From a virus (Duplodnaviria > Heunggongvirae > Uroviricota > Caudoviricetes): a stretch of DNA of 64,000 bases. Positions 762-31,163 of this stretch are shown in pieces (positions within the stretch are counted from its first letter, which is position 1; the number at the start of each line of letters is the position of its first letter). A model generated the notes under the pieces. The model did no database searches, was not told the DNA's origin, and was given only the letters and a program-made list of their open reading frames with translations. The position numbers were made by a program, and so were the translations under genes. The stretch is taken from the IMG/VR virus record IMGVR_UViG_3300029923_000009; one strand, given 5' to 3'.

Positions 762-1093
762 TAAAAGATCTTATTAGTCAAATAGAAGCTATTAAAGAGC
801 AGTTATACACTAAAATAAGTGAACTACCCGACAATGCAAATATAAAGCGTTTAGATAGTGATTCTAATTGCTTTATTATTAATTCAAGTCAAATAATAGG
901 AAAGCCATTTTCTCCTGAATACCATGATTATAAACATCAATATAAACTTATCATTAAATATCTTAAAACGTGTGAAATTACCAACTTTGAAAATAGTTTA
1001 AATACTATAATTAAAACAAGTATTGTAAGGGATGGTAATAGAAGTGTTCGTTTAAACCCCGAAGTTGTTAAATATCTTAAAACAATTATTTAA
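758..1093 (+). CDS. hypothetical protein (111 aa)
   Basis: ATG ORF with ATGA overlap on upstream stop. Confidence 0.5.
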   Translation: MIKDLISQIEAIKEQLYTKISELPDNANIKRLDSDSNCFIINSSQIIGKPFSPEYHDYKHQYKLIIKYLKTCEITNFENSLNTIIKTSIVRDGNRSVRLNPEVVKYLKTII

Positions 1094-1135
1094 CAAATTC
1101 CATTTCATTATATCAAAGTTAAACCGTATCTTTGT
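1090..1135 (+). promoter_or_regulatory. early-class promoter (TTAACAAATTCCATTTC-N20-TATCTTTGT)
   Basis: The -7 box matches Bacteroidetes TAnnTTTG; the upstream box contains the stop of the gene ending at 1093. Confidence 0.55.
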
Positions 1136-1174
1136 GTATGAATTAAATTAATAAATCAATTAAAATAATATTAT

Positions 1175-1537
1175 ATGAAAAAAGAAACGCTTGTAAACTG
1201 TTTAAATTGCGGACATGAATTTGTTTTAACAAGTTGGGGATATGATAAATTAGAAGATGATTGTGCTTTTTATACCGTTTGTCCTGAATGCGAAAGCAGT
1301 TTTGATATTTCAGATGAAGATGCTGAATCAATTTTAATACCTGATGGTACAGAAATCAAATTATCAGATGGTAGTATTTGTATTGTTGATGGGAATGATT
1401 TTGAAGATGTAGATTTTGAAGATGATATACCTTTTGATAATATTAATTATCACGTTTGCCCTATTGAATTTACAAATGAAGAAATTTGGTCAGACCATTA
1501 TATTTATGTGAGAAGAGTAGAATTCGAATTAAATTAA
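1175..1537 (+). CDS. acidic zinc-ribbon protein (120 aa)
   Basis: CLNCGHEF...CPEC plus HVCP; early-class promoter 1090-1135 upstream. Confidence 0.55.
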   Translation: MKKETLVNCLNCGHEFVLTSWGYDKLEDDCAFYTVCPECESSFDISDEDAESILIPDGTEIKLSDGSICIVDGNDFEDVDFEDDIPFDNINYHVCPIEFTNEEIWSDHYIYVRRVEFELN

Positions 1538-1579
1538 CAAATTTCATTTCAGCCAATCAATTAAATTCACTACTTTTGT
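1534..1579 (+). promoter_or_regulatory. early-class promoter
   Basis: TTAACAAATTTCATTTC ... TACTTTTGT; contains the stop of the gene ending at 1537. Confidence 0.55.
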
Positions 1580-1612
1580 AATACAATTTAAAACAATAAT
1601 AATAATAATCGT

Positions 1613-1840
1613 ATGAAAACATTAATAACTGAAATGTCTCACAATATCGGACAAATTCGAGAAGAATTTGCAGATGAAGAAGTAAAACGAATGATTAAAC
1701 AAACAGGTAAAAATTGGTCAAAATCTTATGAAGACCAAATGTTTGTTATTGATGAATCAGATGATGATGTTATTAATCCTTGTATAAGAAAAGAAGGACA
1801 TTGTTTTGTATGTCAAGATAATTATGTTGAAAATTGGTAA
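1613..1840 (+). CDS. hypothetical protein (75 aa)
   Basis: ATG ORF; early promoter 1534-1579. Confidence 0.5.
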   Translation: MKTLITEMSHNIGQIREEFADEEVKRMIKQTGKNWSKSYEDQMFVIDESDDDVINPCIRKEGHCFVCQDNYVENW

Positions 1841-1863
1841 TTAAGCAAAATAAAACAATCGTT

Positions 1864-2025
1864 ATGGAAAAGAAAGTAGTAGTTGTAAGTTTTATCATTC
1901 CCGATAATGGTTTTGATATTGAACATATTGAAGCAGCAATAAAAAGAGGATTAGCTTTTGGATTAGATGTTAAACATATTTGTAACCCAAATGAAATAGA
2001 AGAAATGGTAATAACCATTGCCTAA
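1864..2025 (+). CDS. hypothetical protein (53 aa)
   Basis: ORF-track start 1834 is TTG; first in-frame ATG at 1864. Confidence 0.4.
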   Translation: MEKKVVVVSFIIPDNGFDIEHIEAAIKRGLAFGLDVKHICNPNEIEEMVITIA

Positions 2026-2037
2026 AAACTTTAATGA

Positions 2038-2238
2038 ATGAAAAAATATATTGTAATTGTTACGAGTGATGATATGTACCAACAGTTTACAACAGTTGAT
2101 TGTGATACACAGGAAGTAGTTCATCAACATTCGTGTGGATATTGTTCAAGTGATGAAGAAGAAAATAATGAAGTAAGAAAAGCTTGTATTATGAGTAATG
2201 GTATTTACAAAACAATTAAAATTAGTGGTAGTTTTTAA
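2038..2238 (+). CDS. hypothetical Cys-containing protein (66 aa)
   Basis: ATG ORF. Confidence 0.45.
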   Translation: MKKYIVIVTSDDMYQQFTTVDCDTQEVVHQHSCGYCSSDEEENNEVRKACIMSNGIYKTIKISGSF

Positions 2239-2248
2239 CTAAATAATT

Positions 2249-2512
2249 ATGGAAATAAATACACTTGGAGAGCCTTTAAATAAAGAATTTAATAAATTTA
2301 ATCCATCGTTTGATATTAATATCAAATTGAATACTAAAAATATTCAAACTATTCTATGGTGGTTACATGTTCACAATGGTGAGGTTGATATGGATGTACA
2401 GGATGTTGCAGCGTATAAAAAGATTATTAAAATGTTACCTGACAATGAGGAAAAAGGTAAAATTACAAGTCTTTATGATATTAATCATAAATTAAACAGT
2501 CAAGATTATTAA
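2249..2512 (+). CDS. hypothetical protein (87 aa)
   Basis: ATG ORF. Confidence 0.5.
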   Translation: MEINTLGEPLNKEFNKFNPSFDINIKLNTKNIQTILWWLHVHNGEVDMDVQDVAAYKKIIKMLPDNEEKGKITSLYDINHKLNSQDY

Positions 2513-2532
2513 TATAAATACATTATTATATT

Positions 2533-2889
2533 ATGAGAAAATTTCATTTGGTAAGTAGAATTGGTGATGATGTTTTTGTTTGTGAAACATTGGTTGAAAT
2601 GTGGAATTGTATTAATGATACTATTGAAGAACCTAAAAAATATGTTGTTGATGAAATGAACGGATATAGTTTTGTTGATTCTATAGGTGCTTATACTTTA
2701 ATTGATATGTATAAAACGGAAGATGATGTTCCCGAAACATTGTTCGAAGATGAAATAGCCATTAAAATAAAAAAAGAAGCAATTACATTCAAAACTTGGT
2801 GTGATGAAAATGTTTCAGACGGACGTGATTTAACAAATGAACAATTGTATGAGGAATTTATTAAACTCCATTATATAAAATGTGATTAA
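2533..2889 (+). CDS. hypothetical protein (118 aa)
   Basis: ATG ORF; followed by terminator 2964-2998. Confidence 0.5.
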   Translation: MRKFHLVSRIGDDVFVCETLVEMWNCINDTIEEPKKYVVDEMNGYSFVDSIGAYTLIDMYKTEDDVPETLFEDEIAIKIKKEAITFKTWCDENVSDGRDLTNEQLYEEFIKLHYIKCD

Positions 2890-2963
2890 GAAAGGATGCA
2901 ACAGAAATGTTAAGTACTAATTCGCTAAAATATATAATGGGGTTTTTATATTTATAAAATTAA

Positions 2964-2998
2964 CAAAAAGGGTTTGCGAAAGTGAATCCTTTTTTTTA
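2964..2998 (+). terminator. rho-independent terminator
   Basis: AAAAAGGGTTTGCGAAAGTGAATCCTTTTTTTT: GC-containing stem with GAAA-type loop and T-run. Confidence 0.5.
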
Positions 2999-3006
2999 TC
3001 TTTGTA
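2998..3006 (+). promoter_or_regulatory. -7 box TATCTTTGT
   Basis: Immediately after the terminator hairpin; 30 nt before ATG 3038. Confidence 0.4.
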
Positions 3007-3037
3007 CTATCAAATTAATTAAAAAACAAGTAAAAAT

Positions 3038-3340
3038 ATGAGCACAATTAAACCTGATTATTATACTTTTAATGAACATTATAACCCTAAACAGATGTAT
3101 TATGTTCTTTTGAATGGACAAACATTTTTAGCTGTTTATAATAGATTTAAAAAGCCAAATAAAAGGGTACACGTTGAGGATTTTGAATATACAATTGAAA
3201 TTACAACACTAAAAAGATTTAAACGAAATTGGATTGATGAAAATATTAATACAGTTGTTTATTTAAAGGTTATTGTGGGTACAAAAAAAGTAACGACTAA
3301 TTTGCAAGATGGTGTTTTAATTCAATTAGCAAAAATATAA
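3038..3340 (+). CDS. hypothetical protein (100 aa)
   Basis: ATG ORF after TATCTTTGT at 2998. Confidence 0.5.
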   Translation: MSTIKPDYYTFNEHYNPKQMYYVLLNGQTFLAVYNRFKKPNKRVHVEDFEYTIEITTLKRFKRNWIDENINTVVYLKVIVGTKKVTTNLQDGVLIQLAKI

Positions 3341-3343
3341 ATT

Positions 3344-3589
3344 ATGGAAAATGATAATGTAATTTTTTCAGTGGGTACGAAATTCGAAGTTGTTGGATGG
3401 GTTATGCTTAAAGGATTGGATGATGGGTGTAAGTACGTTGTTACTATCAGAGAGGATAATGTGGTTCAATTTGCAAGGATTTTGAAAAATGGTAAGAAAG
3501 CTAAAAAGCAGTTTGCTCACTATTTGAGTGATATGGAATCAAGTGTTAACTGTAAAGATCGTTGTTTAAATCATATAAATATTCTTTAA
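3344..3589 (+). CDS. hypothetical protein (81 aa)
   Basis: ATG ORF 3 nt after upstream stop. Confidence 0.5.
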   Translation: MENDNVIFSVGTKFEVVGWVMLKGLDDGCKYVVTIREDNVVQFARILKNGKKAKKQFAHYLSDMESSVNCKDRCLNHINIL

Positions 3590-3631
3590 TAAATTTCATT
3601 TTGATATATTAATGTTAAATAGTATCTTTGT
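3587..3631 (+). promoter_or_regulatory. early-class promoter (variant upstream box)
   Basis: TAATAAATTTCATTTTG ... TATCTTTGT. Confidence 0.5.
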
Positions 3632-3657
3632 ATTATCAATTTAATTAAAATATAATT

Positions 3658-3870
3658 ATGAAAATTAAAAGATTATGTGCAGGATATTATAAGGTTGTTG
3701 GTTTTATTGAAGATGTTAATATAGTAAGAATATACCATGAAGAAGATAATAAATATTATTGGTATGTTGAGATTGATGGTTGTGCTGATGATTTAATTGA
3801 TACAAAAAAAGAATGTATCTTAGGTCTCGATGAATTAATTAAAATGGGTAATATTCACCCAATAAAATAA
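3658..3870 (+). CDS. hypothetical protein (70 aa)
   Basis: ATG ORF; early promoter 3587-3631. Confidence 0.5.
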   Translation: MKIKRLCAGYYKVVGFIEDVNIVRIYHEEDNKYYWYVEIDGCADDLIDTKKECILGLDELIKMGNIHPIK

Positions 3871-3890
3871 CAACAAAAAAATAAATTATT

Positions 3891-4076
3891 ATGAGTAAAA
3901 AAATGAATACTTGGATTGAACAATTATTACCTATAATTGAAGAGTACAAAGATGGTTTTGAAAATGAACCTTTGGATAGTGATGCAGTGGATGATTTAAT
4001 TGAAATCATTAGAGCCAAAATCAATCTGCAAGAGGGTAATATTACCATTGAAGAATACGAAACACTAATCGGATAA
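3891..4076 (+). CDS. hypothetical acidic protein (61 aa)
   Basis: ATG ORF. Confidence 0.45.
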   Translation: MSKKMNTWIEQLLPIIEEYKDGFENEPLDSDAVDDLIEIIRAKINLQEGNITIEEYETLIG

Positions 4077-4095
4077 ACAAATAAAAATAATCATC

Positions 4096-4341
4096 ATGGA
4101 CAAAAATTTAAAAATCAACATTAAAAATTTTGTTATTAGAAATTCATATTTTAAACCAAATTCAAACGATGTTGATGAAGTGTTCTTTAGTACACGAAAA
4201 CATTCTTTTGGTGGTCATAGTGGGGATGCAGATTTTAATGAGGGCTATCGTATCAAAAAGATGTTAATCGCTGAATTTGGGAATATGGATATTGAAGTAC
4301 GTTCGTCTGATGAGTGGGTTAGTTTGAGCGTTTATAATTAA
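4096..4341 (+). CDS. hypothetical protein (81 aa)
   Basis: ATG ORF. Confidence 0.45.
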   Translation: MDKNLKINIKNFVIRNSYFKPNSNDVDEVFFSTRKHSFGGHSGDADFNEGYRIKKMLIAEFGNMDIEVRSSDEWVSLSVYN

Positions 4342-4353
4342 TTAATAATTAAT

Positions 4354-4399
4354 TTAACAAATTCCATTTCTATATATCAACGTTAAACAGTATCTTTGT
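4354..4399 (+). promoter_or_regulatory. early-class promoter
   Basis: TTAACAAATTCCATTTC ... TATCTTTGT. Confidence 0.55.
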
Positions 4400-4446
4400 A
4401 GGGTAATCAAAAATAAATAATTAAACAAATAAAACATACACACATT

Positions 4447-5037
4447 ATGAAAATGAAAGACAGAGTTGCATTGAACGAAGTTAAAAATTTAAGTAAAGAA
4501 ATGTACGAAACTTTTCTTAGATATAATAAAGGAATATCTAACTTTATGGAATATTTTTTTAAATATCATGCATTAAAATTTCCCGAAATTCAAATTTTCA
4601 GAGAAGAAAATGAAGATTTTTTAGACGATGGTAATACAAGAACTGCAGGTTTTACGTGGTCTGCATATTGGATTGTACCATTATCAGAAAATGAAGTTAG
4701 CGTTAGTGATGTTAGAAGTGGGTATGGAAATTCAGCAATTGTATTTCATATGGAAAATTACGATCAAAGACTATTTGATGGTCGTATAGGTGGTATTAAA
4801 TCTTTCTCACTATCTTTTAGTTTTGGTTCATATATTGATTTAGTTAAATTATCCGATGGTGCATTTATTCAGAATAATTCTAAAAGGTTGGATTTTCAGA
4901 ATAACAATTATAATGAATTAGCATTATTAAATAGAAAAGAAAATTATTTAAAGCTTATTATATGTTTGAATAAACTGAACGAGGTTAAAAAAATTGAGAG
5001 TTTTTTTGATAAACAAATTATTGATTTAAAATATTGA
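4447..5037 (+). CDS. hypothetical protein (196 aa)
   Basis: ATG ORF; early promoter 4354-4399. Confidence 0.55.
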   Translation: MKMKDRVALNEVKNLSKEMYETFLRYNKGISNFMEYFFKYHALKFPEIQIFREENEDFLDDGNTRTAGFTWSAYWIVPLSENEVSVSDVRSGYGNSAIVFHMENYDQRLFDGRIGGIKSFSLSFSFGSYIDLVKLSDGAFIQNNSKRLDFQNNNYNELALLNRKENYLKLIICLNKLNEVKKIESFFDKQIIDLKY

Positions 5038-5043
5038 TTAACA

Positions 5044-5057
5044 TACTCAATTGAGTA
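5044..5057. repeat. TACTCA-NN-TGAGTA palindrome (copy 1)
   Basis: TACTCAATTGAGTA; 27 nt before ATG 5084. Confidence 0.6.
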
Positions 5058-5083
5058 CTAAACAAATAATAAAATAAGTATAT

Positions 5084-5401
5084 ATGACAACAACTAAATT
5101 AAAAAAGTTTTTTGAGGAACATGAATATAATGTTGAGTTATTTAAACAGGATAATCAACAATGTGCAGAAATTGAAAGTTGGACAGATGGCGGTGTAGAT
5201 ATGATTATTACACTTCAACCATTCTCAATAGAAGAATTCATTAAATATGTTAATGATTTTAATATAGATGAAGAAATTGATTTGTACCGACAAGATAAAA
5301 GTTATAAAACTTCTTTTACTATCAGCGAAAGTGTTGCGGACTTTACAAAGTATTTAGAAGAATTGAAAAGTGTTGTAACTGAATTAGAAAATTTAAAATA
5401 A
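5084..5401 (+). CDS. hypothetical acidic protein (105 aa)
   Basis: ATG ORF; TACTCAATTGAGTA palindrome 27 nt upstream. Confidence 0.5.
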   Translation: MTTTKLKKFFEEHEYNVELFKQDNQQCAEIESWTDGGVDMIITLQPFSIEEFIKYVNDFNIDEEIDLYRQDKSYKTSFTISESVADFTKYLEELKSVVTELENLK

Positions 5402-5526
5402 ATATATGGGAACAGCAAGATTATTTCAAGTGGTAAATATGAGCGAAATAAGTAAACCCATAAACGAAATAGCATTTTGGAATAATAATGGGGATTATAT
5501 TTTTTTAAGAAAATAAGAATGATTGT

Positions 5527-5706
5527 ATGGGTGATAAAACATCAAAAGAATTTGCTAATACTACCACTATTGAGAATTTTGTTTTAACTATAGTTAATAA
5601 GGAATTACAAGATATGCTACCATCGTTTGATGTTAGTAAAAGTGGTTCACACATTTGGATTGAAGAAAAAACTTCAAAGACAAGAGTAATGTTGATAACA
5701 TTTTAA
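5527..5706 (+). CDS. hypothetical small protein (59 aa)
   Basis: ATG ORF absent from track (<60 aa); stop embedded in TTAACAAATTTC box. Confidence 0.35.
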   Translation: MGDKTSKEFANTTTIENFVLTIVNKELQDMLPSFDVSKSGSHIWIEEKTSKTRVMLITF

Positions 5707-5748
5707 CAAATTTCATTTCGGTATATCACTGTTAAGTATTATCTTTGT
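5703..5748 (+). promoter_or_regulatory. early-class promoter
   Basis: TTAACAAATTTCATTTC ... TATCTTTGT; the upstream box contains the stop of small ORF 5527-5706. Confidence 0.55.
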
Positions 5749-5785
5749 GTATCAATTAAAACAAATATTTATCCAATTAAAACAT

Positions 5786-6145
5786 ATGAATATGAAAACA
5801 GATTTAGAAATGACCCGTGAATTGAATGCGTTGGATATTCAGATTTATAAAATCAAAGGAACTGAAAGATTTGAAACGTGTACTCATGATTCTTATCGTT
5901 TGGAATTTGATTCAATCAAAGATGCTTATGATTACCATAAAGCAACTAATTTTTTGAATAAAGAACCAACAGCAAATGTAAAAAAATTCAAATTAGTAAT
6001 TACATCTGTATTTCATTTTCATGTTGAAATATTTGTTGATGATGAAATATTTTGTTGTAGTGATAGAAATATTTACAAATCGGAAATTATAAAAGCTATC
6101 AAGGAATATGAAGCCGAAGGATTTGTTTTGGTTGAATATTTTTAA
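5786..6145 (+). CDS. hypothetical protein (119 aa)
   Basis: Track start 5747 is GTG inside the -7 box; first ATG 5786 (alternative 5792). Confidence 0.5.
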   Translation: MNMKTDLEMTRELNALDIQIYKIKGTERFETCTHDSYRLEFDSIKDAYDYHKATNFLNKEPTANVKKFKLVITSVFHFHVEIFVDDEIFCCSDRNIYKSEIIKAIKEYEAEGFVLVEYF

Positions 6146-6187
6146 TAAATTCTATTTCCATATATCATAGTTAAAGCTTATCTTTAC
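6144..6187 (+). promoter_or_regulatory. early-class promoter (degenerate)
   Basis: TAATAAATTCTATTTCC ... TATCTTTAC. Confidence 0.4.
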
Positions 6188-6226
6188 ACTATCAATTAAT
6201 TATTTAATCAAATAAAAAACAGATAT

Positions 6227-6451
6227 ATGAATTCACGTGAAAATGAGATGAAGTTTTATAATTATATTATTGATAAGGCTATAGAATCAAAAGATGGTGG
6301 TGATTTAAAAGAATTACAGGAACTAATTCAATTATATTCTTTTGATGATATGTTAAGATATACTTTCCTTATGGGATTAATATATGGTGCGTTAATGCAA
6401 TTTAATAAAAAGATTGCTATTGAAGAATTACAGGAGTTTAAAAAGTTTTAA
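6227..6451 (+). CDS. hypothetical protein, paralog family A (74 aa)
   Basis: N-terminal half ~70% identical to 7026-7229 (NSxENExKFxNYIIDKxIxSxxGGDLKELQEL). Confidence 0.5.
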   Translation: MNSRENEMKFYNYIIDKAIESKDGGDLKELQELIQLYSFDDMLRYTFLMGLIYGALMQFNKKIAIEELQEFKKF

Positions 6452-6474
6452 CTTAAATAAATAAGTACATTGTT

Positions 6475-6726
6475 ATGAAGACCGAATATGAACAACTTAC
6501 AACAGCAAAGAAAAATATTGCAAAATCTTTGATTAAATACATAACTTTATCCAATAAACTTGGTCAACATGGAACACAAAGTATTGCTTTGATTGATGGT
6601 GTTTATGAAGCATATAACGTTACCAATATGAGTAGTGATGTGTTGGAGTTATTAATGAAGAGTTTAAATAATTGGCACGAGCAAAATGAGGAATTAAAAC
6701 GTATGTTCACACCACCAATTATTTAA
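6475..6726 (+). CDS. hypothetical protein (83 aa)
   Basis: ATG ORF. Confidence 0.5.
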   Translation: MKTEYEQLTTAKKNIAKSLIKYITLSNKLGQHGTQSIALIDGVYEAYNVTNMSSDVLELLMKSLNNWHEQNEELKRMFTPPII

Positions 6727-6768
6727 CAAATTTCATTTCCATATATCAGAGTTAAAGACTATCTTTGT
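6723..6768 (+). promoter_or_regulatory. early-class promoter
   Basis: TTAACAAATTTCATTTC ... TATCTTTGT. Confidence 0.55.
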
Positions 6769-6789
6769 ATTATAATTAAAACAAAATGT

Positions 6790-7029
6790 ATGATAAAAGA
6801 GGAATCAAATTATTTTAAATGTAAATCAACAGAATATTCTACATTTTTAAAAAATAGAATTTATCATAAAGATTTAATAGGTAAGTATCTAATATCAGAA
6901 CCAAATGATTGGGTATTAGTACCATCATATCCTACTTATCAAGAAATAATTGAAATAATTGAAATAGGTGATGATGTTCAAATTAAAAAATTATTGAAAT
7001 TATTAAAAATATGGAGAAAAGAATTATGA
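6790..7029 (+). CDS. hypothetical protein (79 aa)
   Basis: ATG ORF; early promoter 6723-6768. Confidence 0.5.
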   Translation: MIKEESNYFKCKSTEYSTFLKNRIYHKDLIGKYLISEPNDWVLVPSYPTYQEIIEIIEIGDDVQIKKLLKLLKIWRKEL

Positions 7030-7229
7030 ACTCATCAGAAAACGAAATAAAATTTTGTAATTATATTATTGATAAGGTTATAAAATCAAATGGCGGTGGT
7101 GATTTAAAAGAATTACAGGAACTAGTTCAGGCAGATACAGTTGGAATTTCTCCCGAATATTCAGAAGTTTACACAAAGGAAATATCAATATCTTTCGATG
7201 GTGATGAGTTGGTTAAGAATAATTTATAA
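7026..7229 (+). CDS. hypothetical protein, paralog family A (67 aa)
   Basis: Start moved to ATG 7026 (ATGA overlap), which aligns with the paralog at 6227. Confidence 0.5.
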   Translation: MNSSENEIKFCNYIIDKVIKSNGGGDLKELQELVQADTVGISPEYSEVYTKEISISFDGDELVKNNL

Positions 7230-7235
7230 ATAAAT

Positions 7236-7251
7236 ATACTCATTTGAGTAT
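7236..7251. repeat. TACTCA-NN-TGAGTA palindrome (copy 2)
   Basis: ATACTCATTTGAGTAT; 22 nt before ATG 7273. Confidence 0.6.
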
Positions 7252-7272
7252 CTAATAAATACATTTAATACA

Positions 7273-7936: not shown

Positions 7937-7960
7937 AAATTAATTAAAATATTAAAAATT

Positions 7961-23226: not shown

Positions 23227-23240
23227 TTAAATAATAATAA

Positions 23241-23825: not shown

Positions 23826-23845
23826 AAAAAAATTATAATTAATAT

Positions 23846-24127: not shown

Positions 24128-24156
24128 AATAACCATTAAAAAATAAATGTAAGAAA

Positions 24157-24459: not shown

Positions 24460-24468
24460 TGGTATTAT

Positions 24469-24588: not shown

Positions 24589-24746
24589 TAAAAAGAGCAA
24601 TTGAAACAGAAGACGATTATATTGATAGAAAATATGAAAGTAGTAAACAGGTATTAGAAACATTTTATAAATTAATTTTTATAGTTTTATTTGGTGTTAT
24701 ACTTGGTAAAATTTTTGGTTATGTAATTTTAACCTTTTTAAATTAA
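24585..24746 (+). CDS. hypothetical small membrane protein (53 aa)
   Basis: Replaces track ORF 24549; ATG at 24585 is coupled to the upstream small ORF. Confidence 0.35.
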   Translation: MIKRAIETEDDYIDRKYESSKQVLETFYKLIFIVLFGVILGKIFGYVILTFLN

Positions 24747-24756
24747 TTATAATATA

Positions 24757-24939
24757 ATGATTAGATTTTTGAAAAGAAATTACTATAAACTATTTGATTA
24801 TGCTAGTCGAATAGATAACGATTCTAAAGGGAAATTCAGAGTTAAATATTCAGATGGTAAAACAACAACAAAAATGAGTTATTGGACTGCCAAAACATAT
24901 GCAACTACATTTAATGGGGTAATAATCGACGCATTTTAA
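24757..24939 (+). CDS. hypothetical protein (60 aa)
   Basis: ATG ORF. Confidence 0.4.
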   Translation: MIRFLKRNYYKLFDYASRIDNDSKGKFRVKYSDGKTTTKMSYWTAKTYATTFNGVIIDAF

Positions 24940-24955
24940 TTAAAATCAAAATAAT

Positions 24956-25123
24956 ATGGAATTAACATTTAGAAAAACAGAAACTGATGAAATTATCATT
25001 GAAGGACTTTTCCCTCTACCAGTAGTGTATCAGGATTTAGATACTGCCCTCACCTGTGAATTTGCTACGAAGTTGGAAGAGGCATTAAAGGAATACGGTG
25101 GGAATGTGATTGTAAAATTTTAA
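24956..25123 (+). CDS. hypothetical small protein (55 aa)
   Basis: ATG ORF absent from track. Confidence 0.35.
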   Translation: MELTFRKTETDEIIIEGLFPLPVVYQDLDTALTCEFATKLEEALKEYGGNVIVKF

Positions 25124-25283
25124 ATAATATGAGAAAAATATATATGGTACAGACTTTGAACTTTATAGCTCAAACAAATGTGGATTTTGTAAATGATATA
25201 CTTAAAAATTCAACTCAACAACAGTTGAAAGATGATACGTATTATTTTGTTATGAATTAATTAACAATCAAAATTTTATTGTT

Positions 25284-25541
25284 ATGGCGAATGATTATTT
25301 TAACTATGAACCTACAGCTATTGAATTGAACGAATTCAAAATGGTTAATTCAGGCTATATAAAGCCACCTAAACCATTTGAAATTATCAAACCTACTCAC
25401 GGTTCACTTGTATTAATAGAGGGTAATAATCGAACGATAATAAAGAATAATTTACCAATACCTTTATTACAACATATAAGAAGTAAAATGATAAAAAATT
25501 GTTATAAAAAGAAAAATTTAAAAATAGAACATATAATTTAA
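25284..25541 (+). CDS. hypothetical protein (85 aa)
   Basis: ATG ORF. Confidence 0.45.
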   Translation: MANDYFNYEPTAIELNEFKMVNSGYIKPPKPFEIIKPTHGSLVLIEGNNRTIIKNNLPIPLLQHIRSKMIKNCYKKKNLKIEHII

Positions 25542-25554
25542 AATAAATAAACAT

Positions 25555-25938
25555 ATGGAAATAATAAAAGTTATAATTTTATGGATACTTATAGATATTT
25601 CAATTATCTTAGTCATTATTGAAATTACGAATATATTGGTAAATGGCTATCATTTTATCCATGGAAATGGTGTGAATTTATTAATTGAAGAACTTGATGT
25701 TAGTACATCTTCAATTTTAAGTTCGATGATAGATTTAAAAGGAAAGTCAAGATTGAATGCGCAGTATATATCGAATTCAATGTCAACTTTAATCTTTCCT
25801 TATATTATTAGATGTGGAGAGTTAGGTGATAAAAGGACTACGTATATGATTATTAGGTGGACAAAATCTTATTATCTCATTAAGGATAAATACAAAGAGC
25901 TTTACCCGAAAAAAAAAAACAAACCAAAAATACATTAA
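25555..25938 (+). CDS. membrane protein (127 aa)
   Basis: N-terminal TM helix; followed by terminator 25953-25984. Confidence 0.5.
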   Translation: MEIIKVIILWILIDISIILVIIEITNILVNGYHFIHGNGVNLLIEELDVSTSSILSSMIDLKGKSRLNAQYISNSMSTLIFPYIIRCGELGDKRTTYMIIRWTKSYYLIKDKYKELYPKKKNKPKIH

Positions 25939-25952
25939 ATTTTAGTTGATTT

Positions 25953-25984
25953 AACCACATTATATTTTATTTTGTGGTTTTTTA
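25953..25984 (+). terminator. rho-independent terminator
   Basis: AACCACA ... TGTGGTT followed by TTTTT. Confidence 0.5.
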
Positions 25985-25991
25985 ATATATT

Positions 25992-26037
25992 TTAACAAAT
26001 TAAATTTTTACAAGTAAATGTTTTATAATATCTTTGT
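25992..26037 (+). promoter_or_regulatory. early-class promoter
   Basis: TTAACAAATTAAATTTTT ... TATCTTTGT. Confidence 0.5.
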
Positions 26038-26096
26038 TGCCTAATCAATAAATAAATAAATAAATGATTAATATTAAGTAAAAAAAATATACTGAT

Positions 26097-26444
26097 ATGG
26101 AAATAGAAATAGGTAAAAAATACAATTACTTTGATGATGGAAAAATATGGGAAAGTAGACGGTTGACTGTTGAAATTACAGAGATAATTCCATTTAAAGA
26201 TATTGATGATACAACACTTTGTATTTGGAAAAGTGAGGTTGAACAGTGTTATTGGTTATATTCTAAAGAAACAGACTATTTTGTTAAAGGACTTTTAGAA
26301 ACGGAATATATAGAAATAAAATACGAGGAAATTATTTTTGTTAGAACCTTAGATGGTGGATGGTTTAGTCTCGGATGGTGGGGTGGAAGATTAGATGTAG
26401 ATGGAAAACTTGCCATATTATCAAATAAGAACTCACAAAAATAA
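26097..26444 (+). CDS. hypothetical protein (115 aa)
   Basis: ATG ORF; early promoter 25992-26037. Confidence 0.5.
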   Translation: MEIEIGKKYNYFDDGKIWESRRLTVEITEIIPFKDIDDTTLCIWKSEVEQCYWLYSKETDYFVKGLLETEYIEIKYEEIIFVRTLDGGWFSLGWWGGRLDVDGKLAILSNKNSQK

Positions 26445-26448
26445 TATT

Positions 26449-26673
26449 ATGACGGAAGAAGAAAAATGGTGTCGGCGTTTAAAACGTGTAGTTGATAATA
26501 TGCCCGAAACTTTAGAGGTTTGTATATGTCTAGGTACTATTAATGTTTATTCAAATGGATCTATTCGTAGAAGTTTTGAACAAAGTGGTGATGCAGATGA
26601 AGTTGGTAAATATTCAGAATTTAATTTCACAATTTATGATACAGGGTTCTATGGAAACGAAGAAAGCATTTAA
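26449..26673 (+). CDS. hypothetical protein (74 aa)
   Basis: Track start 26401 overlaps the upstream gene by 44 nt; ATG 26449 is just after its stop. Confidence 0.45.
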   Translation: MTEEEKWCRRLKRVVDNMPETLEVCICLGTINVYSNGSIRRSFEQSGDADEVGKYSEFNFTIYDTGFYGNEESI

Positions 26674-26687
26674 TAAAATATATTAAT

Positions 26688-27116
26688 ATGGAAGACATTT
26701 TTAGAATAGTTACAAAAGCATTTGGTAATAAAGTTGATAAGGGTGGAAGTCCATATGTTTACCATCTAAATAGGGTTGCCGATAAAGTGATGGTCTATTA
26801 TAGCGAAGATTATGAGTTAAAAGAAGCTGCTTTTTGTTATGATCTTTTGGAAGACATAAAAGGTTGGACACCTGAAAAGTTGGGTGAATATGTAAGTCCT
26901 CGTGTTGTTAATTTAGTTAGTATTTTAACGCATAAAGAATATGAACCATATAAAGATTATATTGATAGGGTTGCAATGGATAAGGATGCTATTAAGATTA
27001 AATTAGCTGACTTAGAGGACAATATGGATATTACAAGATTACCTGAATTGACTGAAAAGGACATTGTGCGTTTAAAGAAATACCACAAGTACTACATTTA
27101 CTTAAAAAATTTATAG
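26688..27116 (+). CDS. RelA/SpoT-like HD-domain protein with degenerate HD motif (142 aa)
   Basis: GGSPYVYHLNRVA, AAFCYDLLED and IKLADLEDNM align to the (p)ppGpp-hydrolase HD-domain blocks (SGEPYIxHPLxVA / ALLHDVVED / KLADRLHNM), but the HD dyad reads YD. Confidence 0.55.
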   Translation: MEDIFRIVTKAFGNKVDKGGSPYVYHLNRVADKVMVYYSEDYELKEAAFCYDLLEDIKGWTPEKLGEYVSPRVVNLVSILTHKEYEPYKDYIDRVAMDKDAIKIKLADLEDNMDITRLPELTEKDIVRLKKYHKYYIYLKNL

Positions 27117-27119
27117 AAT

Positions 27120-27338
27120 ATGAAAGTAACACAAAACGGGCTACAGGAATTTCCAGAAGAGAGTGGTTTAATAATGGATGATATTATTAATTTAATGAAT
27201 TTAATAAATAAAAAAGATGGCCATTTGGGTGACATAGTTTCTTGTATTAGAACGACATGTTCAAGCCTGAAATTAAAAGCAGATAAATTATCAAAAATAT
27301 TTGAAGAACAAAAATATGAGACTAATAAAAATAACTAA
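27120..27338 (+). CDS. hypothetical protein (72 aa)
   Basis: ATG ORF. Confidence 0.45.
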   Translation: MKVTQNGLQEFPEESGLIMDDIINLMNLINKKDGHLGDIVSCIRTTCSSLKLKADKLSKIFEEQKYETNKNN

Positions 27339-27624
27339 ATATCTTAGTGCTAGAAGTTTTGATCACTATGTTGTTATATATGATGATTCAAAAACTGTAT
27401 CGGAAATCGATGAAATAGTGGAAGACTGGGGACAGTCCAACCCATCAGGTTCTAATAATGGATATAATCTTAATTGGTCATTTATTGAGGATGAAAAACT
27501 AATTGAAGATTCTTTTCTAAAAGAACTTAAAAGAATATTATTAGATATTGATGAATTACAGAAAAAAGAAATTGAATTGTATACGTATTTTAAATCAATA
27601 AAAGTAAAAGATGTAGAATCATGA
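27316..27624 (+). CDS. hypothetical protein (102 aa)
   Basis: Track start 27301 is TTG; ATG 27316. Confidence 0.45.
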   Translation: MRLIKITKYLSARSFDHYVVIYDDSKTVSEIDEIVEDWGQSNPSGSNNGYNLNWSFIEDEKLIEDSFLKELKRILLDIDELQKKEIELYTYFKSIKVKDVES

Positions 27625-27809
27625 AAAAGAAAGTAAACCTTAAAGATCCTGAAACGGACGAAATTATTGCACAGGTAAATTTACTGACAATTGATTGGTA
27701 TGACGACCTTATACCGACTTGGGAATATTTTTTAGAACAGGTTGGTGGAAATATTGAGGATTTTATAGAATATGTTAATGAAACTACAAACTTAAAAATA
27801 AGCAAATAA
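27621..27809 (+). CDS. hypothetical acidic protein (62 aa)
   Basis: ATGA overlap. Confidence 0.45.
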   Translation: MKKKVNLKDPETDEIIAQVNLLTIDWYDDLIPTWEYFLEQVGGNIEDFIEYVNETTNLKISK

Positions 27810-27810
27810 A

Positions 27811-28008
27811 ATGCAAAAAATAAATAATTTAATAGAAGATTATCAGAGACGAAGTTCAAATATTGAAAGTCAATTAAAATCTTCTAAATGTAAAGAAGAT
27901 AATGTTAATATTAATCGTTTGAGTGCTAAACTTCATTGTTATAAAACGTTTGTAGTTGAACTAGAACGTTTGGTTGATGAAATTAATGAGAAAAATCAAC
28001 GAATTTAA
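27811..28008 (+). CDS. hypothetical protein (65 aa)
   Basis: ATG ORF. Confidence 0.45.
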   Translation: MQKINNLIEDYQRRSSNIESQLKSSKCKEDNVNINRLSAKLHCYKTFVVELERLVDEINEKNQRI

Positions 28009-28043
28009 TTGTTAATTTATTTTGTTAATCCAATACCTTTACG

Positions 28044-28052
28044 TATCTTTGT
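28044..28052 (+). promoter_or_regulatory. -7 box TATCTTTGT
   Basis: 30 nt before ATG 28082. Confidence 0.4.
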
Positions 28053-28081
28053 ATTAGAAATTTAAAGAAGAAAATTATATT

Positions 28082-28411
28082 ATGGAAACAACATTTAGTA
28101 CGATTAATTTTATTGAACCTACGGATGAGTTCAAAAAAGAATTTTTCGATGTTTTGAATATTAAGGAATTTTTTAATATGGACTTAATTGCTTATTCTTT
28201 TTATTATAAAGATGTTTTAAAAGATAATAACCTTAAATTAGATGAACTCGAAAGATCTTTTAATGGGTATGTAAAATTTTATAATTTACAGTATTCATTA
28301 TTAGAAATCTATGAAATGTTCAAAGATTGGACTGAAAATGATTTAACTAATTTCATGGCTTATTATAGACCAATTTTTTTAAAAAATAATAAAGATACAA
28401 ATGAACAATAA
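28082..28411 (+). CDS. hypothetical protein (109 aa)
   Basis: ATG ORF; -7 box 28044-28052. Confidence 0.5.
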   Translation: METTFSTINFIEPTDEFKKEFFDVLNIKEFFNMDLIAYSFYYKDVLKDNNLKLDELERSFNGYVKFYNLQYSLLEIYEMFKDWTENDLTNFMAYYRPIFLKNNKDTNEQ

Positions 28412-28733
28412 AGAATTTATATTATGTGCAGCTATTCATTATAAAAATGGTGCTGAAACAACCGTATATGGGGTTGAAGATGGTGTAATTGTTTGTGGGA
28501 GAAGACATGGAGATTGTTATGCTATTTTGAAAGGTATATTGAATATTGGTGATGATTATAATATTGATGATTTACCCGATAGAGATGAGCAGGGATTTTT
28601 AACATCTGAAAATAGGTTTGTTTCAAGACGTGAAGCGTGGTTTATAGCTAAAAAAAATAAACAAATTAGATTTGGGTTAGAAGCAACAGAGAATGGAGAA
28701 TTTAGTGAATTAATTTCCGAAAACTTATATTAA
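28401..28733 (+). CDS. hypothetical protein (110 aa)
   Basis: ATG ORF overlapping the upstream stop. Confidence 0.5.
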   Translation: MNNKEFILCAAIHYKNGAETTVYGVEDGVIVCGRRHGDCYAILKGILNIGDDYNIDDLPDRDEQGFLTSENRFVSRREAWFIAKKNKQIRFGLEATENGEFSELISENLY

Positions 28734-28747
28734 AATACTAATATTTT

Positions 28748-29026
28748 ATGAAAACAAATATTTTAGATAGAAGATTATCAGTCGAAGATCAAAGTGAAAT
28801 TTTAGAAACGTTGTTTTCTTTTAAATGTGTAAAAACGGATGAAAATGATGATAAACATGTTATTATCTACGATGAAGAGGGTTACGAATTTTATGGTAAT
28901 GATATTAACCTGAAATATGATTTAACAAATATTCGGGGAATTATATGGTATGCCAAAGACATATCAGCTTATAATGCTATTTGGGAACATAACACCAAAA
29001 TCAAAAATCTTTTAAATATAAGATAA
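28748..29026 (+). CDS. hypothetical protein (92 aa)
   Basis: ATG ORF. Confidence 0.5.
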   Translation: MKTNILDRRLSVEDQSEILETLFSFKCVKTDENDDKHVIIYDEEGYEFYGNDINLKYDLTNIRGIIWYAKDISAYNAIWEHNTKIKNLLNIR

Positions 29027-29027
29027 G

Positions 29028-29267
29028 ATGATGGAACAACAGAATATAATAAAAGGCAATAAAGTTAAATTTTACGATTGTTTTCAAGTTTCAATTGATA
29101 AAGATGCATCTGGAACTAATCCAAAACATTACCCTATTGGTATTGTCGATAAGGTTTATATCTATCACAGTATTTTTGGTTATTCTGATCAGGTTTGTGA
29201 CATTAAAATAGGTAATAGAATATCAAGAGCGCATTTCACTAATTGTGTTACCAAAATACCCAATTGA
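29028..29267 (+). CDS. hypothetical protein (79 aa)
   Basis: ATG ORF. Confidence 0.45.
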   Translation: MMEQQNIIKGNKVKFYDCFQVSIDKDASGTNPKHYPIGIVDKVYIYHSIFGYSDQVCDIKIGNRISRAHFTNCVTKIPN

Positions 29268-29269
29268 GT

Positions 29270-29503
29270 ATGCTGAAAAAGAAAAAACTCACAGTTAAAG
29301 AAAAACTGTTTAATGATATTGATAGTGTAATATCAATTAAACTTAGTTTAACGGGGCTTAAAGAGTTCGAAAACTATTTTAGAACCGAACTATTCACTGC
29401 AGGACCCGATCAATGGAATGAGCTTGAAATAGCTATTTGTGACTATAATATGAGAATACAAACTGAATTAGAAACCGAAATAAAAAAACTACTAATAAAA
29501 TGA
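29270..29503 (+). CDS. hypothetical protein (77 aa)
   Basis: Track start 29243 is TTG; ATG 29270. Confidence 0.45.
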   Translation: MLKKKKLTVKEKLFNDIDSVISIKLSLTGLKEFENYFRTELFTAGPDQWNELEIAICDYNMRIQTELETEIKKLLIK

Positions 29504-29793
29504 AAAATATAGAGAAAAAATATACAAAAGAAGAAATTCTTTTATTTAATGAAAATGATTGGGAGTTTGGTCGTAGTAGTGGCTATGCTGGTTATTATCG
29601 GAAAGGATCAGAATATTGTGATAAGGAATCTAATTGGATCTATGAACAAGATTATATGGATCGTAAAAATCTATTGGAAAAGTATTATGAAGATTATAAA
29701 CTACTTCACAATTTCAGACTTGAACAATTAGAATTTGGAAAATACCCCGACTACATCATTCAAGATTTTTTAAACAACAAATATTTTAAATAA
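29500..29793 (+). CDS. hypothetical protein (97 aa)
   Basis: ATGA overlap. Confidence 0.5.
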   Translation: MKNIEKKYTKEEILLFNENDWEFGRSSGYAGYYRKGSEYCDKESNWIYEQDYMDRKNLLEKYYEDYKLLHNFRLEQLEFGKYPDYIIQDFLNNKYFK

Positions 29794-29803
29794 ACAATAT
29801 TAT

Positions 29804-29959
29804 ATGGTATTATTCATTTTAATTTTAGGTTTAATTCTTAATATTTTGAGTGTTTATGTTGATATTAAGAAAAAATATTACTATGTTCTTATATTAAACG
29901 CAATTGCGGTTGTTTTAATATCTTTTGCTATTATTAATCACTTCTTTAAAATTATATAA
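29804..29959 (+). CDS. hypothetical small membrane protein (51 aa)
   Basis: ATG ORF absent from track; two hydrophobic segments. Confidence 0.35.
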   Translation: MVLFILILGLILNILSVYVDIKKKYYYVLILNAIAVVLISFAIINHFFKII

Positions 29960-29963
29960 ATAT

Positions 29964-30308
29964 ATGAAACTAAGCGAAATTCACAATGGTTTAGAAAACC
30001 AAAATATTAGAGAAATGTTATCAAAAAAAATAGGTGATTTGGTTTTTAATTTACCACAAAAAATACAGGTAGATAATAAACTATATATTCTTGATTGGTC
30101 AATTAAAAATGAAGAGGCTGAAATAGCCTATCATACGGAATTATTAAATAAAACAAAAGAAAAACAAGCCTGTAGATTACTAATTAAAATGATGGGTTGG
30201 GAGGAATATGATGTTTCGGATTACACACAATTGGATTTACCTAATTGGATTAACTTTATTGGAACTGAAAACGAATATCATAACCTTTTAAAACAATTAA
30301 ACGTATGA
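29964..30308 (+). CDS. hypothetical protein (114 aa)
   Basis: Track start 29925 is TTG; ATG 29964. Confidence 0.5.
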   Translation: MKLSEIHNGLENQNIREMLSKKIGDLVFNLPQKIQVDNKLYILDWSIKNEEAEIAYHTELLNKTKEKQACRLLIKMMGWEEYDVSDYTQLDLPNWINFIGTENEYHNLLKQLNV

Positions 30309-30592
30309 TATTAATGTATATTTTCGCTGGATTAGTATTATTGTGTGCCATAGCCTCTGGTGTTATGGTTGATAACGATAACAAAAATGGTAAATATAAT
30401 ACGGCTATGATAGTATTTGTGATTATGCTTCTTTTTTCGGTAATTGTTGGTGGAATAACATCAAAAACATCATATAAGGATGGCTTTGAAAAAGGATACC
30501 AAAAAGGTCAAGTTGACTACCAAAAAGGCAAAATAGAATATAAGGTGGAAATCAAACAAGTAACCGATACAATTATATCAAAAGCTAATTAA
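30305..30592 (+). CDS. small membrane protein (95 aa)
   Basis: ATGA overlap; two TM helices. Confidence 0.5.
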   Translation: MILMYIFAGLVLLCAIASGVMVDNDNKNGKYNTAMIVFVIMLLFSVIVGGITSKTSYKDGFEKGYQKGQVDYQKGKIEYKVEIKQVTDTIISKAN

Positions 30593-30595
30593 TAA

Positions 30596-30609
30596 TACTC
30601 AAATGAGTA
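30596..30609. repeat. TACTCA-NN-TGAGTA palindrome (copy 5)
   Basis: TACTCAAATGAGTA; 18-27 nt before ATG 30627/30636. Confidence 0.6.
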
Positions 30610-30626
30610 CCTAAAATAAACTAAAA

Positions 30627-31109
30627 ATGTTGATCATGGGAAAATATAGAATAAAAATAGACTATAGTACTGGAGATAGTTTTAGTAACAGTTATGAATC
30701 TGACCTTATCGACCTTGAATGGGATGATATTGAAGTAGCTAAAAAAAATTTGGGTAGAATTAAAGAGCATTACGAAATGTATCAAAGACTAAATAGCTAT
30801 TTTAATAATATAAGTCAATTCGATATAGTAAATGAATATAAAAATAAAGATTGGTTTGTTTCTGGGGAAAATAAGTTATTAAATATAAAAAATAACTGTA
30901 TCATTACTAAAGAGGAAGCTGATAGAATTGGGGTGGACAACTTTAAGGTTGTAATAGATGTTGATATGGCCTCAAGATGTATAATATTTATTACAGATAA
31001 TAAAACACCTATGCAGATAGGGTGCTTTTGGTGTGGATGTTTTGAACATCTTGATGGTGCCGAAATTATAATTGATCAAGATGATGATATTAAATTCATA
31101 GTAAATTAA
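30627..31109 (+). CDS. hypothetical protein (160 aa)
   Basis: ATG ORF; TACTCA-AA-TGAGTA palindrome upstream. Confidence 0.55.
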   Translation: MLIMGKYRIKIDYSTGDSFSNSYESDLIDLEWDDIEVAKKNLGRIKEHYEMYQRLNSYFNNISQFDIVNEYKNKDWFVSGENKLLNIKNNCIITKEEADRIGVDNFKVVIDVDMASRCIIFITDNKTPMQIGCFWCGCFEHLDGAEIIIDQDDDIKFIVN

Positions 31110-31117
31110 ATAATATT

Positions 31118-31163
31118 TTAACAAATTTCATTTTACTAGTCCAATTAAATAAATTATCTTTGT
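31118..31163 (+). promoter_or_regulatory. early-class promoter (DUF262 operon)
   Basis: TTAACAAATTTCATTTTAC ... TATCTTTGT. Confidence 0.55.

Follow-up and report, generated by a model that had tools for sequence, protein, structure and literature searches.

Distribution and anatomy of a serially reused phage cassette

We analyzed a 64,000-nucleotide stretch of the genome of a Caudoviricetes virus (IMG/VR record IMGVR_UViG_3300029923_000009; hereafter the window), whose left half carries an array of one short, repeatedly used cassette. An ENA metagenome contig of 122 kb begins with these 64 kb, and contigs of 0.2–1 Mb carry the same proteins. It has 27% GC with a positive GC skew throughout, all of its long open reading frames (ORFs) lie on the plus strand, and it contains no tRNAs. 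By protein comparison, the nearest relatives are the Cellulophaga phages phi4:1 and phi17:2; at the DNA level, megablast with 44 kb of the window found nothing matching among GenBank phages. A Shine-Dalgarno core is found in 0 of 154 called genes (7.6% in random 14-mers), positions −16 to −10 are 61–70% A, and A occupies position −3 in 64% of the 154 genes. Such A-rich start regions without Shine-Dalgarno sequence are the pattern of Flavobacterium johnsoniae and Bacteroidota (PMC6847099), and we therefore assign the window to an uncultured large phage that infects a Bacteroidota host and is a distant relative of the phi4:1 group. Pfam returned no family for 87 of the 90 proteins encoded in 1–33 kb, so that the hyperplastic setting proposed in an initial annotation of this DNA holds in the sense of a region rich in genes of unknown function.

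The same annotation had described about 25 nearly identical intergenic cassettes. We locate 27 copies of TTAACAAATTYCATTTY-N20-TATCTTTGT between 1090 and 31163, far above chance, all on the plus strand and all at gene ends, with a mean spacing of 1.1 kb. The 17-nucleotide (nt) upstream box matches 39 times with up to three mismatches (15.3 ± 4.3 in shuffles); all 10 exact matches are on the plus strand, as are all 24 matches with up to two mismatches in 1–31.2 kb. Exact TATCTTTGT occurs 23 times, only on the plus strand and in 22 cases within 1127–31163, with about 0.6 occurrences expected by chance from base composition. We made a position weight matrix (PWM) from the cassette copies, iterated it and took scores above 25 as strong sites. 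There are 28 such sites in 1090–31163, 27 with a TTAAC-type box and one, at 28007, with a GTTAA-type box; weaker variants follow at 33049, 35904, 50984, 55321, 55928, 58062 and 63504. The 34 window copies scoring above 25 (26–61, compared with a top minus-strand score of 16) are all on the plus strand, at gene ends and sense to the genes. A repeat finder independently recovered the same family.

The spacer between box and −7 element, originally put at about 20 nt, is rigid: it measures 20 nt in 25 of 25 window copies and in 106 of 109 copies elsewhere. Every −7 element in the window is intergenic, with a called ATG next downstream. This ATG had been placed 40–70 nt after the cassette and is found instead 20–59 nt after the end of TATCTTTGT, with outliers at 139 and 198 nt. 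Cassettes never occur within genes, and TAHHTTTG is ∼10-fold denser in intergenic plus-strand DNA, where 43 of 77 sites fall within 10.7% of the sequence, than in coding sequence. The array extends past the left edge of the window: locus L059 (100% identical to window 1–7552) has another 12 copies in the 8.8 kb that precede position 1. Our analysis thus confirms a serially reused, promoter-like cassette in Bacteroidota grammar. One box-like sequence, at 7550–7566, lies inside a gene and has no −7 element 20 nt downstream.

To derive the anatomy of the cassette, we pooled 111 distinct copies, those of the window and those of 24 metagenomic loci. Upstream of the box there is no information content; it sets in abruptly with the first T of TTAAC, is highest at the C of this pentamer, at a second C in box position 12, in a T-run and in the −7 element, and fades past about +52 counted from the box start. 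Pairwise identity is 86% in the boxes, 44% in the spacer and 37–49% in the flanks. When the G of TATCTTTG is set as −5 following the F. johnsoniae analysis, the box covers −49 to −33 and the spacer −32 to −13, and a leader motif starts from +3. The box is thus much longer than a −33 element, as had been noted, and its T-run ends exactly 20 nt 5′ of the −7 element. The proposed Bacteroidetes-type −7 grammar is borne out by TAHHTTTG in 94 of 111 copies (TATCTTTGT in 64); a variant ending in TTTAC accounts for 17. Semi-conserved motifs in the spacer are ATATCA near −28 and GTTAAA near −18. The leader motif AATTAA(AACAA) is present at box offset 51–53 (+3 to +5) in 53% of the copies (8% background), and the predicted leaders of the window cassettes, from predicted start to ATG, are 17–56 nt long (median 29.5 nt).

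In JGI metagenomes the cassette pattern matches 24 loci, one of which is the same phage (99% identity), and about 75 further distinct copies come from related metagenomic phages, with 80–100% identity in the two boxes but divergent spacers and neighboring genes. Genes at the other loci share 67–84% DNA and 37–81% protein identity (mostly 45–80%) with the window or, as for most genes of the relatives, have no window homologue, and despite this divergence the cassettes are nearly identical. Across 13 junctions compared with relatives, identity is 71–94% in the box, 78–100% in the −7 nonamer, 30–70% in the spacer and ∼55–75% in the flanks. Conserved blocks at a fixed distance around a free spacer argue for selection on a bipartite recognition site rather than recent copying. 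In one related contig (L041, Ga0302206_1002525, 6362 nt) cassettes occur on both strands, with 4 and 7 PWM positions above threshold, and this may be a meeting point of divergently transcribed arrays.

The exact pattern has no match in IMG/VR, sensitive blastn of one cassette against GenBank phages gave chance-level matches only, and the cassette has no match in Rfam. The PWM finds nothing above 14 in the complete phi4:1 genome and three weak matches in 27 IMG/VR loci around homologues of a 710-amino-acid (aa) window protein, among which L017 has only the ATTTCATTTT half. A search of 185,579 bacterial and archaeal species genomes gave a single match to the full cassette, on a 38%-GC contig of an Omnitrophota metagenome-assembled genome, which we judge to be a chance match because the contig has neither further copies nor homology to the window.

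Promoter reading of the cassette

The revised sigma-A consensus of F. johnsoniae is TAHHTTTG, in which T-12, A-11, T-8, T-7, T-6 and G-5 are nearly invariant; 4–5 nt separate the −7 element from the start site, the mean leader is 33 nt, the −33 motif is weak, and there are AT-rich features at −28 and −18 (PMC6847099). Bacteroidota sigma-A (sigma-ABfr) promoters of the TTTG/TAnnTTTG type (Baez et al. 2019, PMC6847099) share with the cassette the −7 consensus, the AT-rich −28 and −18 motifs, a leader of about 30 nt, the absence of a Shine-Dalgarno sequence and the A at −3. The cassette differs from them in that the −33 G is mostly absent and in the added 17-nt box, which is not described for host promoters. 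A scan of the window for sigma-70-type promoters revealed no enrichment (153 found, 165 and 150 expected).

Judging from these sequence features, we consider it probable that the cassette is a promoter read by the host primary-sigma (Bacteroidota sigma-A type) RNA polymerase and extended by a lineage-specific upstream element. The polymerase would read TATCTTTG as the −7 element (−12 to −5) and is predicted to start 4–5 nt past its G, in GTATTA. The 3′ end of the box (ATTTY) would fill the −33 position, with the invariant 20-nt spacer between it and the −7 element. The 5′ part, TTAACAAATTYC (−49 to −38), would occupy the place of an UP element or of a site for a class I activator, a role that the initial annotation had raised and to which its position and the comparison with relatives lend some support. 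It is probably recognized in a sequence-specific manner, because its two C are the most informative positions. The transcript would open with a semi-conserved AAUUAAAACAA leader and, after about 30 nt and no Shine-Dalgarno sequence, reach the first ATG of an operon of 1–10 (mean 3.3) small genes. Purifying selection holds both boxes while spacer and genes drift. The repeats are best explained as one promoter unit reused >40 times ahead of short operons of genes of unknown function, and we lean slightly toward expression of these genes early in infection.

A high repeat number, a single orientation and the sharp 5′ boundary at TTAAC are also features of elements other than promoters, such as a mobile element resembling a miniature inverted-repeat transposable element, a replication or packaging iteron, a Chi-like signal or an RNA motif. 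We find an element of this kind highly improbable here. Terminal inverted repeats and target duplications are absent, the sequence of the spacer is free yet its length fixed, the predicted starts lie 17–56 nt 5′ of an ATG, two outliers aside, and the −7 element fits the consensus of the host phylum exactly. Nor does an RNA motif agree with the empty Rfam search and with the 35 of 40 copies that lack a significant fold.

The initial annotation had also drawn attention to the TAA within the box as stop codon of the preceding gene. This holds for the TAA of TTAAC at 9 window copies (1090, 1534, 3586, 5703, 6142, 6723, 9635, 13537 and 17793) when ORFs of at least 35 aa are called, and at 10 when a 27-aa ORF ending at 21850 is counted; the stop reported at 16521 is a different TAA inside the box (GATTAAA). 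An upstream ORF can be identified for 89 copies in all; 36 of these (40%) use the TTAAC stop, and 7 more stops lie elsewhere in the box, often via the variants TTAACTAA or TTAACATAA (43 of 89 in total). Of the other upstream stops, 32 of 44 lie within 20 nt of the box and 12 up to 78 nt 5′ of it; only 2 ORFs run past the box. TTAAC is conserved to 84% where it is not a stop, compared with 92%. As 40% is close to the one-third expected for a random frame and the box is equally kept when it is not a stop, we reject a designed function of the in-box stop: the overlap is real and opportunistic, a by-product of compaction.

The 28 cassettes in 1–31 kb delimit 27 modules of 1–10 genes (mean 3.3), and just 6 of the 27 modules hold a single gene. 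The genes, some 100 by the earlier count, are therefore not individually transcribed, as had been suggested, because each cassette heads about 3.3 of them. Folding of 40 promoters gave 5 significant structures (z ≤ −2.8; at 2960, 9024, 20075, 33049 and 45072), all hairpins inside promoters, between or across the two boxes. Terminator scans of the plus strand found 2965–2994 and 33056–33081, both inside cassettes, and 36487–36507, inside a gene. With so few terminators, transcripts of successive cassettes probably read through and overlap.

Several observations weigh against a promoter read by the host polymerase. With so few terminators, expression would be expected to accumulate along the array. 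The canonical G of the −33 TTTG is present in only 26 of 111 copies, so that contact at −33 would be weak or its place taken by the box, leaving room for a required activator. The 17 copies that carry TATCTTTAC lack the −5 G, a base that host promoters keep almost without exception. Lastly, with the cassette absent from the species genomes searched, the upstream box is not demonstrable as a host promoter feature. The TATCTTTAC allele (in the window at 6142 and 35904) is linked to the canonical −33 G, with an odds ratio of 5.1 and p = 0.004 uncorrected for relatedness; this association may represent compensation between elements or a separate subclass.

Proposed promoter classes and the upstream box

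The promoter-like sites fall into types in which one short element recurs at different positions and orientations. Class I comprises the cassettes with a TTAAC-type box. In subclass IA the spacer has ATATCAnnTGTTAAA, which creates a 6-bp inverted repeat, TTAACA-N22-TGTTAA, centered on −33; the inverted arms are present in 8 window copies and in 11 of the 12 copies upstream of the window (chance of GTTAA in a 20-mer, 3.6%). Subclass IA is restricted to the leftmost 17–20 kb of the phage (L059 1–8826 and window 1090–11217) and is found in 4 of 75 copies of the relatives. Pairing of TTAAC with GTTAA in an RNA hairpin was considered and rejected, as these sequences fold no better than shuffles (z ∼0).

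Class II combines [T]GTTAA (−45 to −41) with a canonical TTG in the −33 position, followed by N20 and TAcaTTTGtatc, with the −7 consensus TAcaTTTG. Boxes of this class start at 28007, 33049, 37810, 41234, 45072, 48343, 50984, 53238, 55321, 55928, 58062 and 63504; from 28 kb to the window end they dominate, replace class I and precede larger genes of nucleic acid metabolism. The layout is shared with Cellulophaga phage phi4:1, where it is also found 5′ of an orthologous gene (upstream of gp179/180). GTTAA or TTAAC is located upstream of 35 of 39 promoter-like sites in the window and of 9 of 15 in phi4:1 (p = 7e-5). Many of these phi4:1 sites have GTTAA twice, at −56 to −52 and again at −45 to −41, an 11-bp phasing that corresponds to the subsite geometry of UP elements. 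The types occupy consecutive genome segments, with IA at −8.8 to +11 kb, IB at 9 to 31 kb and II at 28 to 64+ kb (Table 1).

Table 1. Promoter-like cassettes and related sites in the window. Fold gives the minimum free energy (MFE) and its z score.
Position	Strand	Feature	PWM score	Fold
1..31163	+	Class I array before 92 small genes (median 89 aa), continuing at least 8.8 kb upstream of the window		
1090..1135	+	Class I, IA; TAA 1091–1093 is stop of ORF 758–1093	56.6	
1534..1579	+	Class I, −7 TACTTTTGT; TAA 1535–1537 is stop of ORF 1175–1537	51.6	
2960..3005	+	Class I; terminator-like hairpin (2965–2994) and T-run between −33 and −7		MFE −17.5, z −4.8
3586..3631	+	Class I, IA; box TAA is stop of ORF 3344–3589	51.1	
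4354..4399	+	Class I, IA	55.5	
5703..5748	+	Class I, IA; box TAA is stop of ORF 5527–5706	52.8	
6142..6187	+	Class I, IA, −7 allele TATCTTTAC; box TAA is stop of ORF ending 6145	43.5	
6723..6768	+	Class I, IA; box TAA is stop of ORF 6475–6726	61.4	
8260..8305	+	Class I, IA	47.6	
9024..9069	+	Class I enclosed by hairpin and T-run	31.3	MFE −13.2, z −4.1
9635..9680	+	Class I; box TAA is stop of ORF ending 9638	44.1	
10431..10476	+	Class I; upstream stop directly 5′ of box	50.0	
11172..11217	+	Class I; spacer contains GTTAA	49.8	
12673..12718	+	Class I; variant TTAACTAA gives stop of ORF 12447–12680	56.1	
13537..13582	+	Class I; box TAA is stop of ORF 13250–13540	53.5	
13962..13978	+	Orphan upstream box, intergenic, lacking a −7 element at the 20-nt distance; candidate decayed promoter		
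15210..15255	+	Class I	52.3	
15679..15724	+	Class I, −7 TAATTTTGT	37.9	
16512..16557	+	Class I; TAA at box positions 10–12 is stop of ORF 16230–16523	49.8	
17173..17218	+	Class I; upstream stop directly 5′ of box	43.2	
17793..17838	+	Class I; box TAA is stop of ORF 17548–17796	52.5	
19122..19167	+	Class I, 5′ of SPFH/Band_7 gene 19221–20048	50.1	
20075..20120	+	Cassette variant; 11-bp hairpin across box and spacer	45.7	MFE −17.1, z −6.3
21465..21510	+	Class I; variant TTAACATAA gives stop of ORF 20928–21473	43.1	
21847..21892	+	Class I; box TAA ends 27-aa ORF 21767–21850	50.9	
23778..23823	+	Weak class I (TTAACTAA..., −7 TACATTTGT)	29.2	
25992..26037	+	Class I	44.2	
28007..28052	+	Class II type box (TGTTAA ... 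TTTTG) with TATCTTTGT	33.5	
31118..31163	+	Last class I cassette of the window	55.7	
33049..33094	+	Class II with embedded terminator-like hairpin (33056–33081)		
35904..35949	+	Weak class II-like, −7 TATTTTTAC	26.3	
37810..37855	+	Class II (TGTTAA, TTG, N20, TACATTTGT)		
41234..41279	+	Class II, 5′ of 710-aa gene; layout as at phi4:1 gp179/180 promoter		
45072..45117	+	Class II with embedded hairpin and T-run		MFE −12.6, z −2.8
48343..48388	+	Class II		
50984..51029	+	Class II-like	18.5	
53238..53283	+	Class II-like		
55321..55366	+	Class II	36.0	
55928..55973	+	Class II; upstream gene ends within spacer	33.1	
58062..58107	+	Class II, exact TATCTTTGT	38.7	
63504..63549	+	Class II-like	28.7	

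As far as it can be read from sequence, the layout of the three promoter types fits either an UP-like element read by the C-terminal domain of the host polymerase alpha subunit (alpha-CTD) or a dedicated factor combined with a temporal programme. It is conceivable, though rather unlikely, that TTAACA/TGTTAA is bound by one dedicated factor (either a phage protein or the host alpha-CTD) conserved across large Bacteroidota phages of the phi4:1 type, and that the position and orientation of this hexamer define IA, IB and II as such a programme. If true, this would be the first upstream-element or activator code for Bacteroidota-type promoters and could serve as a handle for strong portable promoters in Bacteroidota. 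Sigma, anti-sigma, MotA, AsiA and ADP-ribosyltransferase domains were found in none of the 150 window proteins, which are mostly uncharacterized, and half of the genome lies outside the window.

Class I could also be activator-dependent, similar to the middle promoters of T4, with host sigma reading the −7 element, a phage-encoded or virion-delivered factor bound to the 17-nt box, and class II being truly immediate-early. T4 middle-type promoters keep the −10 equivalent and replace the −35 equivalent by an activator box, the phage encoding both an activator and a co-activator, and the class I layout is compatible with such a promoter. The −33 G is missing in 85 of 111 copies, whereas class II of the same genome has TTG, the conservation of the box, with two C as its strongest positions, by far exceeds what sigma or alpha contacts normally demand, and the succession of IA, IB and II along the genome resembles a programme. 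We nevertheless hold activator dependence to be unlikely. In T4, T5 and SPO1, tiny uncharacterized genes packed into dense arrays typically belong to the immediate-early set, and none of the regulator domains just listed was found in the 150 window proteins, although most of these are uncharacterized. The −33 motif is weak in F. johnsoniae host promoters anyway (PMC6847099). A precedent in favor of an activator comes from Cellulophaga phage phi14:2, whose middle promoters are described as an “extended tripartite motif” (bioRxiv 10.1101/2020.03.07.982082).

The inverted arms flanking −33 in subclass IA, together with the recurrence of the same hexamer at other positions and orientations in class II and phi4:1 promoters, as is typical of factor sites, could instead point to an operator, at which a repressor would close the promoters after the early phase. 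We regard such a role of the upstream box as very doubtful, since the second arm is missing from most class I copies and from nearly all copies of the relatives (14 of 111 have it), the spacer motifs ATATCA and GTTAAA fall on AT-rich features that ordinary F. johnsoniae promoters also have at −28 and −18, and no candidate DNA-binding protein was identified.

Known cassette systems, recombination and neighboring genes

T4 early promoters are many, strong, nearly identical host-polymerase promoters that are conserved past the −35 equivalent and precede small host-takeover genes. The cassette resembles them in its extended upstream conservation and differs in sigma grammar, and no Alt-like ADP-ribosyltransferase was seen in the window. 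A closer parallel are the promoter-early stem-loop (PeSL) cassettes of T4-type phages (Arbiol et al. 2010, PMC2839356; Comeau et al. 2014, PMC4122927). In both systems dozens of near-identical units with the promoter consensus of the host primary sigma are concentrated in hyperplastic regions immediately 5′ of small genes of unknown function, the unit starts at or near the upstream stop codon in AT-rich DNA (PMC2839356, Fig. 2 legend), and the surrounding gene content is mosaic among related phages. The hairpins between the promoter boxes at 2960, 9024, 20075, 33049 and 45072 correspond to one PeSL subclass.

The differences are equally clear. PeSLs follow the sigma-70 −35/−10 grammar and our cassettes the Bacteroidota −33/−7 grammar; 35 of 40 promoters here have no stem-loop, the defining second component of PeSLs, which places the family outside them; the extra conserved element is a specific 12-nt sequence rather than an unspecific AT-rich tract; the relationships of the phage are with Cellulophaga phage phi4:1 (Lightbulbvirus) and not with T4; and cassette-mediated recombination is without statistical support. 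The middle promoters of the crAss-like phage phi14:2 (bioRxiv 10.1101/2020.03.07.982082), compared here by their description, have a third conserved block and use host polymerase, but that phage belongs to an unrelated family and its few middle-class promoters form no dense array. The cassette is thus a counterpart of the early-promoter cassettes of T4-type phages and not a new principle.

The PeSL comparison raises the question of whether the cassette is mainly portable homology for recombination, a mobile regulatory unit that shuffles gene modules and whose promoter activity is an accompaniment, as in the published PeSL model (PMC2839356). Near-identical cassettes stand in a gene order that is mosaic: of 59 junctions, 53 are broken when compared with the window, 32 of the 53 with a cassette in one genome or the other. 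A clean swap is seen in L035 (w4-C-x52-C-x66-w6, compared with w4-C-w5-C-w6 in the window; C, cassette), and L051 has the single-gene module w46 between different neighbors. Neighboring cassettes have spacers in common (permutation p = 0.012). The 27-aa ORF 21767–21850 is a truncated paralogue of the C terminus of ORF 17548–17796, which argues that a gene 3′ end was duplicated along with its cassette (17745–17809 and 21799–21863).

Against this, broken junctions show no significant enrichment at cassettes (19 of 19 with a cassette and 34 of 40 without, Fisher p = 0.16), and at 21 of the 53 neither genome has a cassette. Clustering at cassettes is likewise not seen for the ends of metagenome contigs (3 of 40 within 40 nt, 15% expected), the exactly conserved stretches are short (17 and 9 nt), and conserved boxes around a free spacer indicate selection on function over copying. 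A PeSL-like contribution of the cassettes to shuffling is plausible from the sequence comparisons; that recombination would be their main role we consider possible, if on balance less than probable. Direct repeats at 6184–6330/6983–7129 (78%) and 8314–8383/16810–16879 (76%) comprise leaders and N-terminal coding sequence of different small genes and indicate paralogous gene starts.

Promoter architecture 5′ of −33 is poorly defined in Bacteroidota, and the transcriptional organization of their large phages is almost unknown. If the cassette is a host-type promoter, as we favor, the array and its relatives offer >100 natural variants of one promoter-like unit, with a 20-nt spacing, a bounded 17-nt box, two −7 alleles and a leader, and represent a ready-made mutational set for what the Bacteroidota polymerase (sigma, alpha-CTD) or a phage factor recognizes. 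The cassettes could yield compact, strong promoters for Flavobacteriia genetics. A T4-like layout, in which a region of uncharacterized genes is studded with one reused promoter, would then recur in an unrelated lineage with a different sigma grammar.

Protein families identified in the window include RNA ligase, RlaP nucleotidyltransferase, homing-endonuclease-like, SPFH and GmrSD_N. The 710-aa protein (phrog_1735, DUF8224; 41372–43504) shares 62% identity with a protein of an uncultured 462-kb phage, 56% with phi4:1 and 50% with phi17:2. It is called a putative RNA polymerase in one record, and a sequence search of the PDB gave no match. DUF8224/phrog_1735 is present in 549 GenBank phage records from diverse hosts (Salmonella Vi1-like phages, Ralstonia phiRSL1, Bacillus, Caulobacter, Cellulophaga).

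An RNA-repair-like set spans 47313–63271 and contains an RNA ligase (47313–48344), an RlaP nucleotidyltransferase (62135–63271), a weak LigT/2′-5′ RNA ligase match, Metallophos phosphoesterases (49853–50572 and 51461–52162) and a HAD_SAK_2 protein (55392–55949). Homing-endonuclease-like genes (54333–55319 and 60856–62142) are interspersed in it, and NAD-salvage genes lie just past the window end (locus L066). Just past the class I array are a GmrSD_N-domain protein (31653–32501) and a HATPase_c_3 (MORC/GHKL-like) protein (36151–37734), domains that are more familiar from host defense systems.

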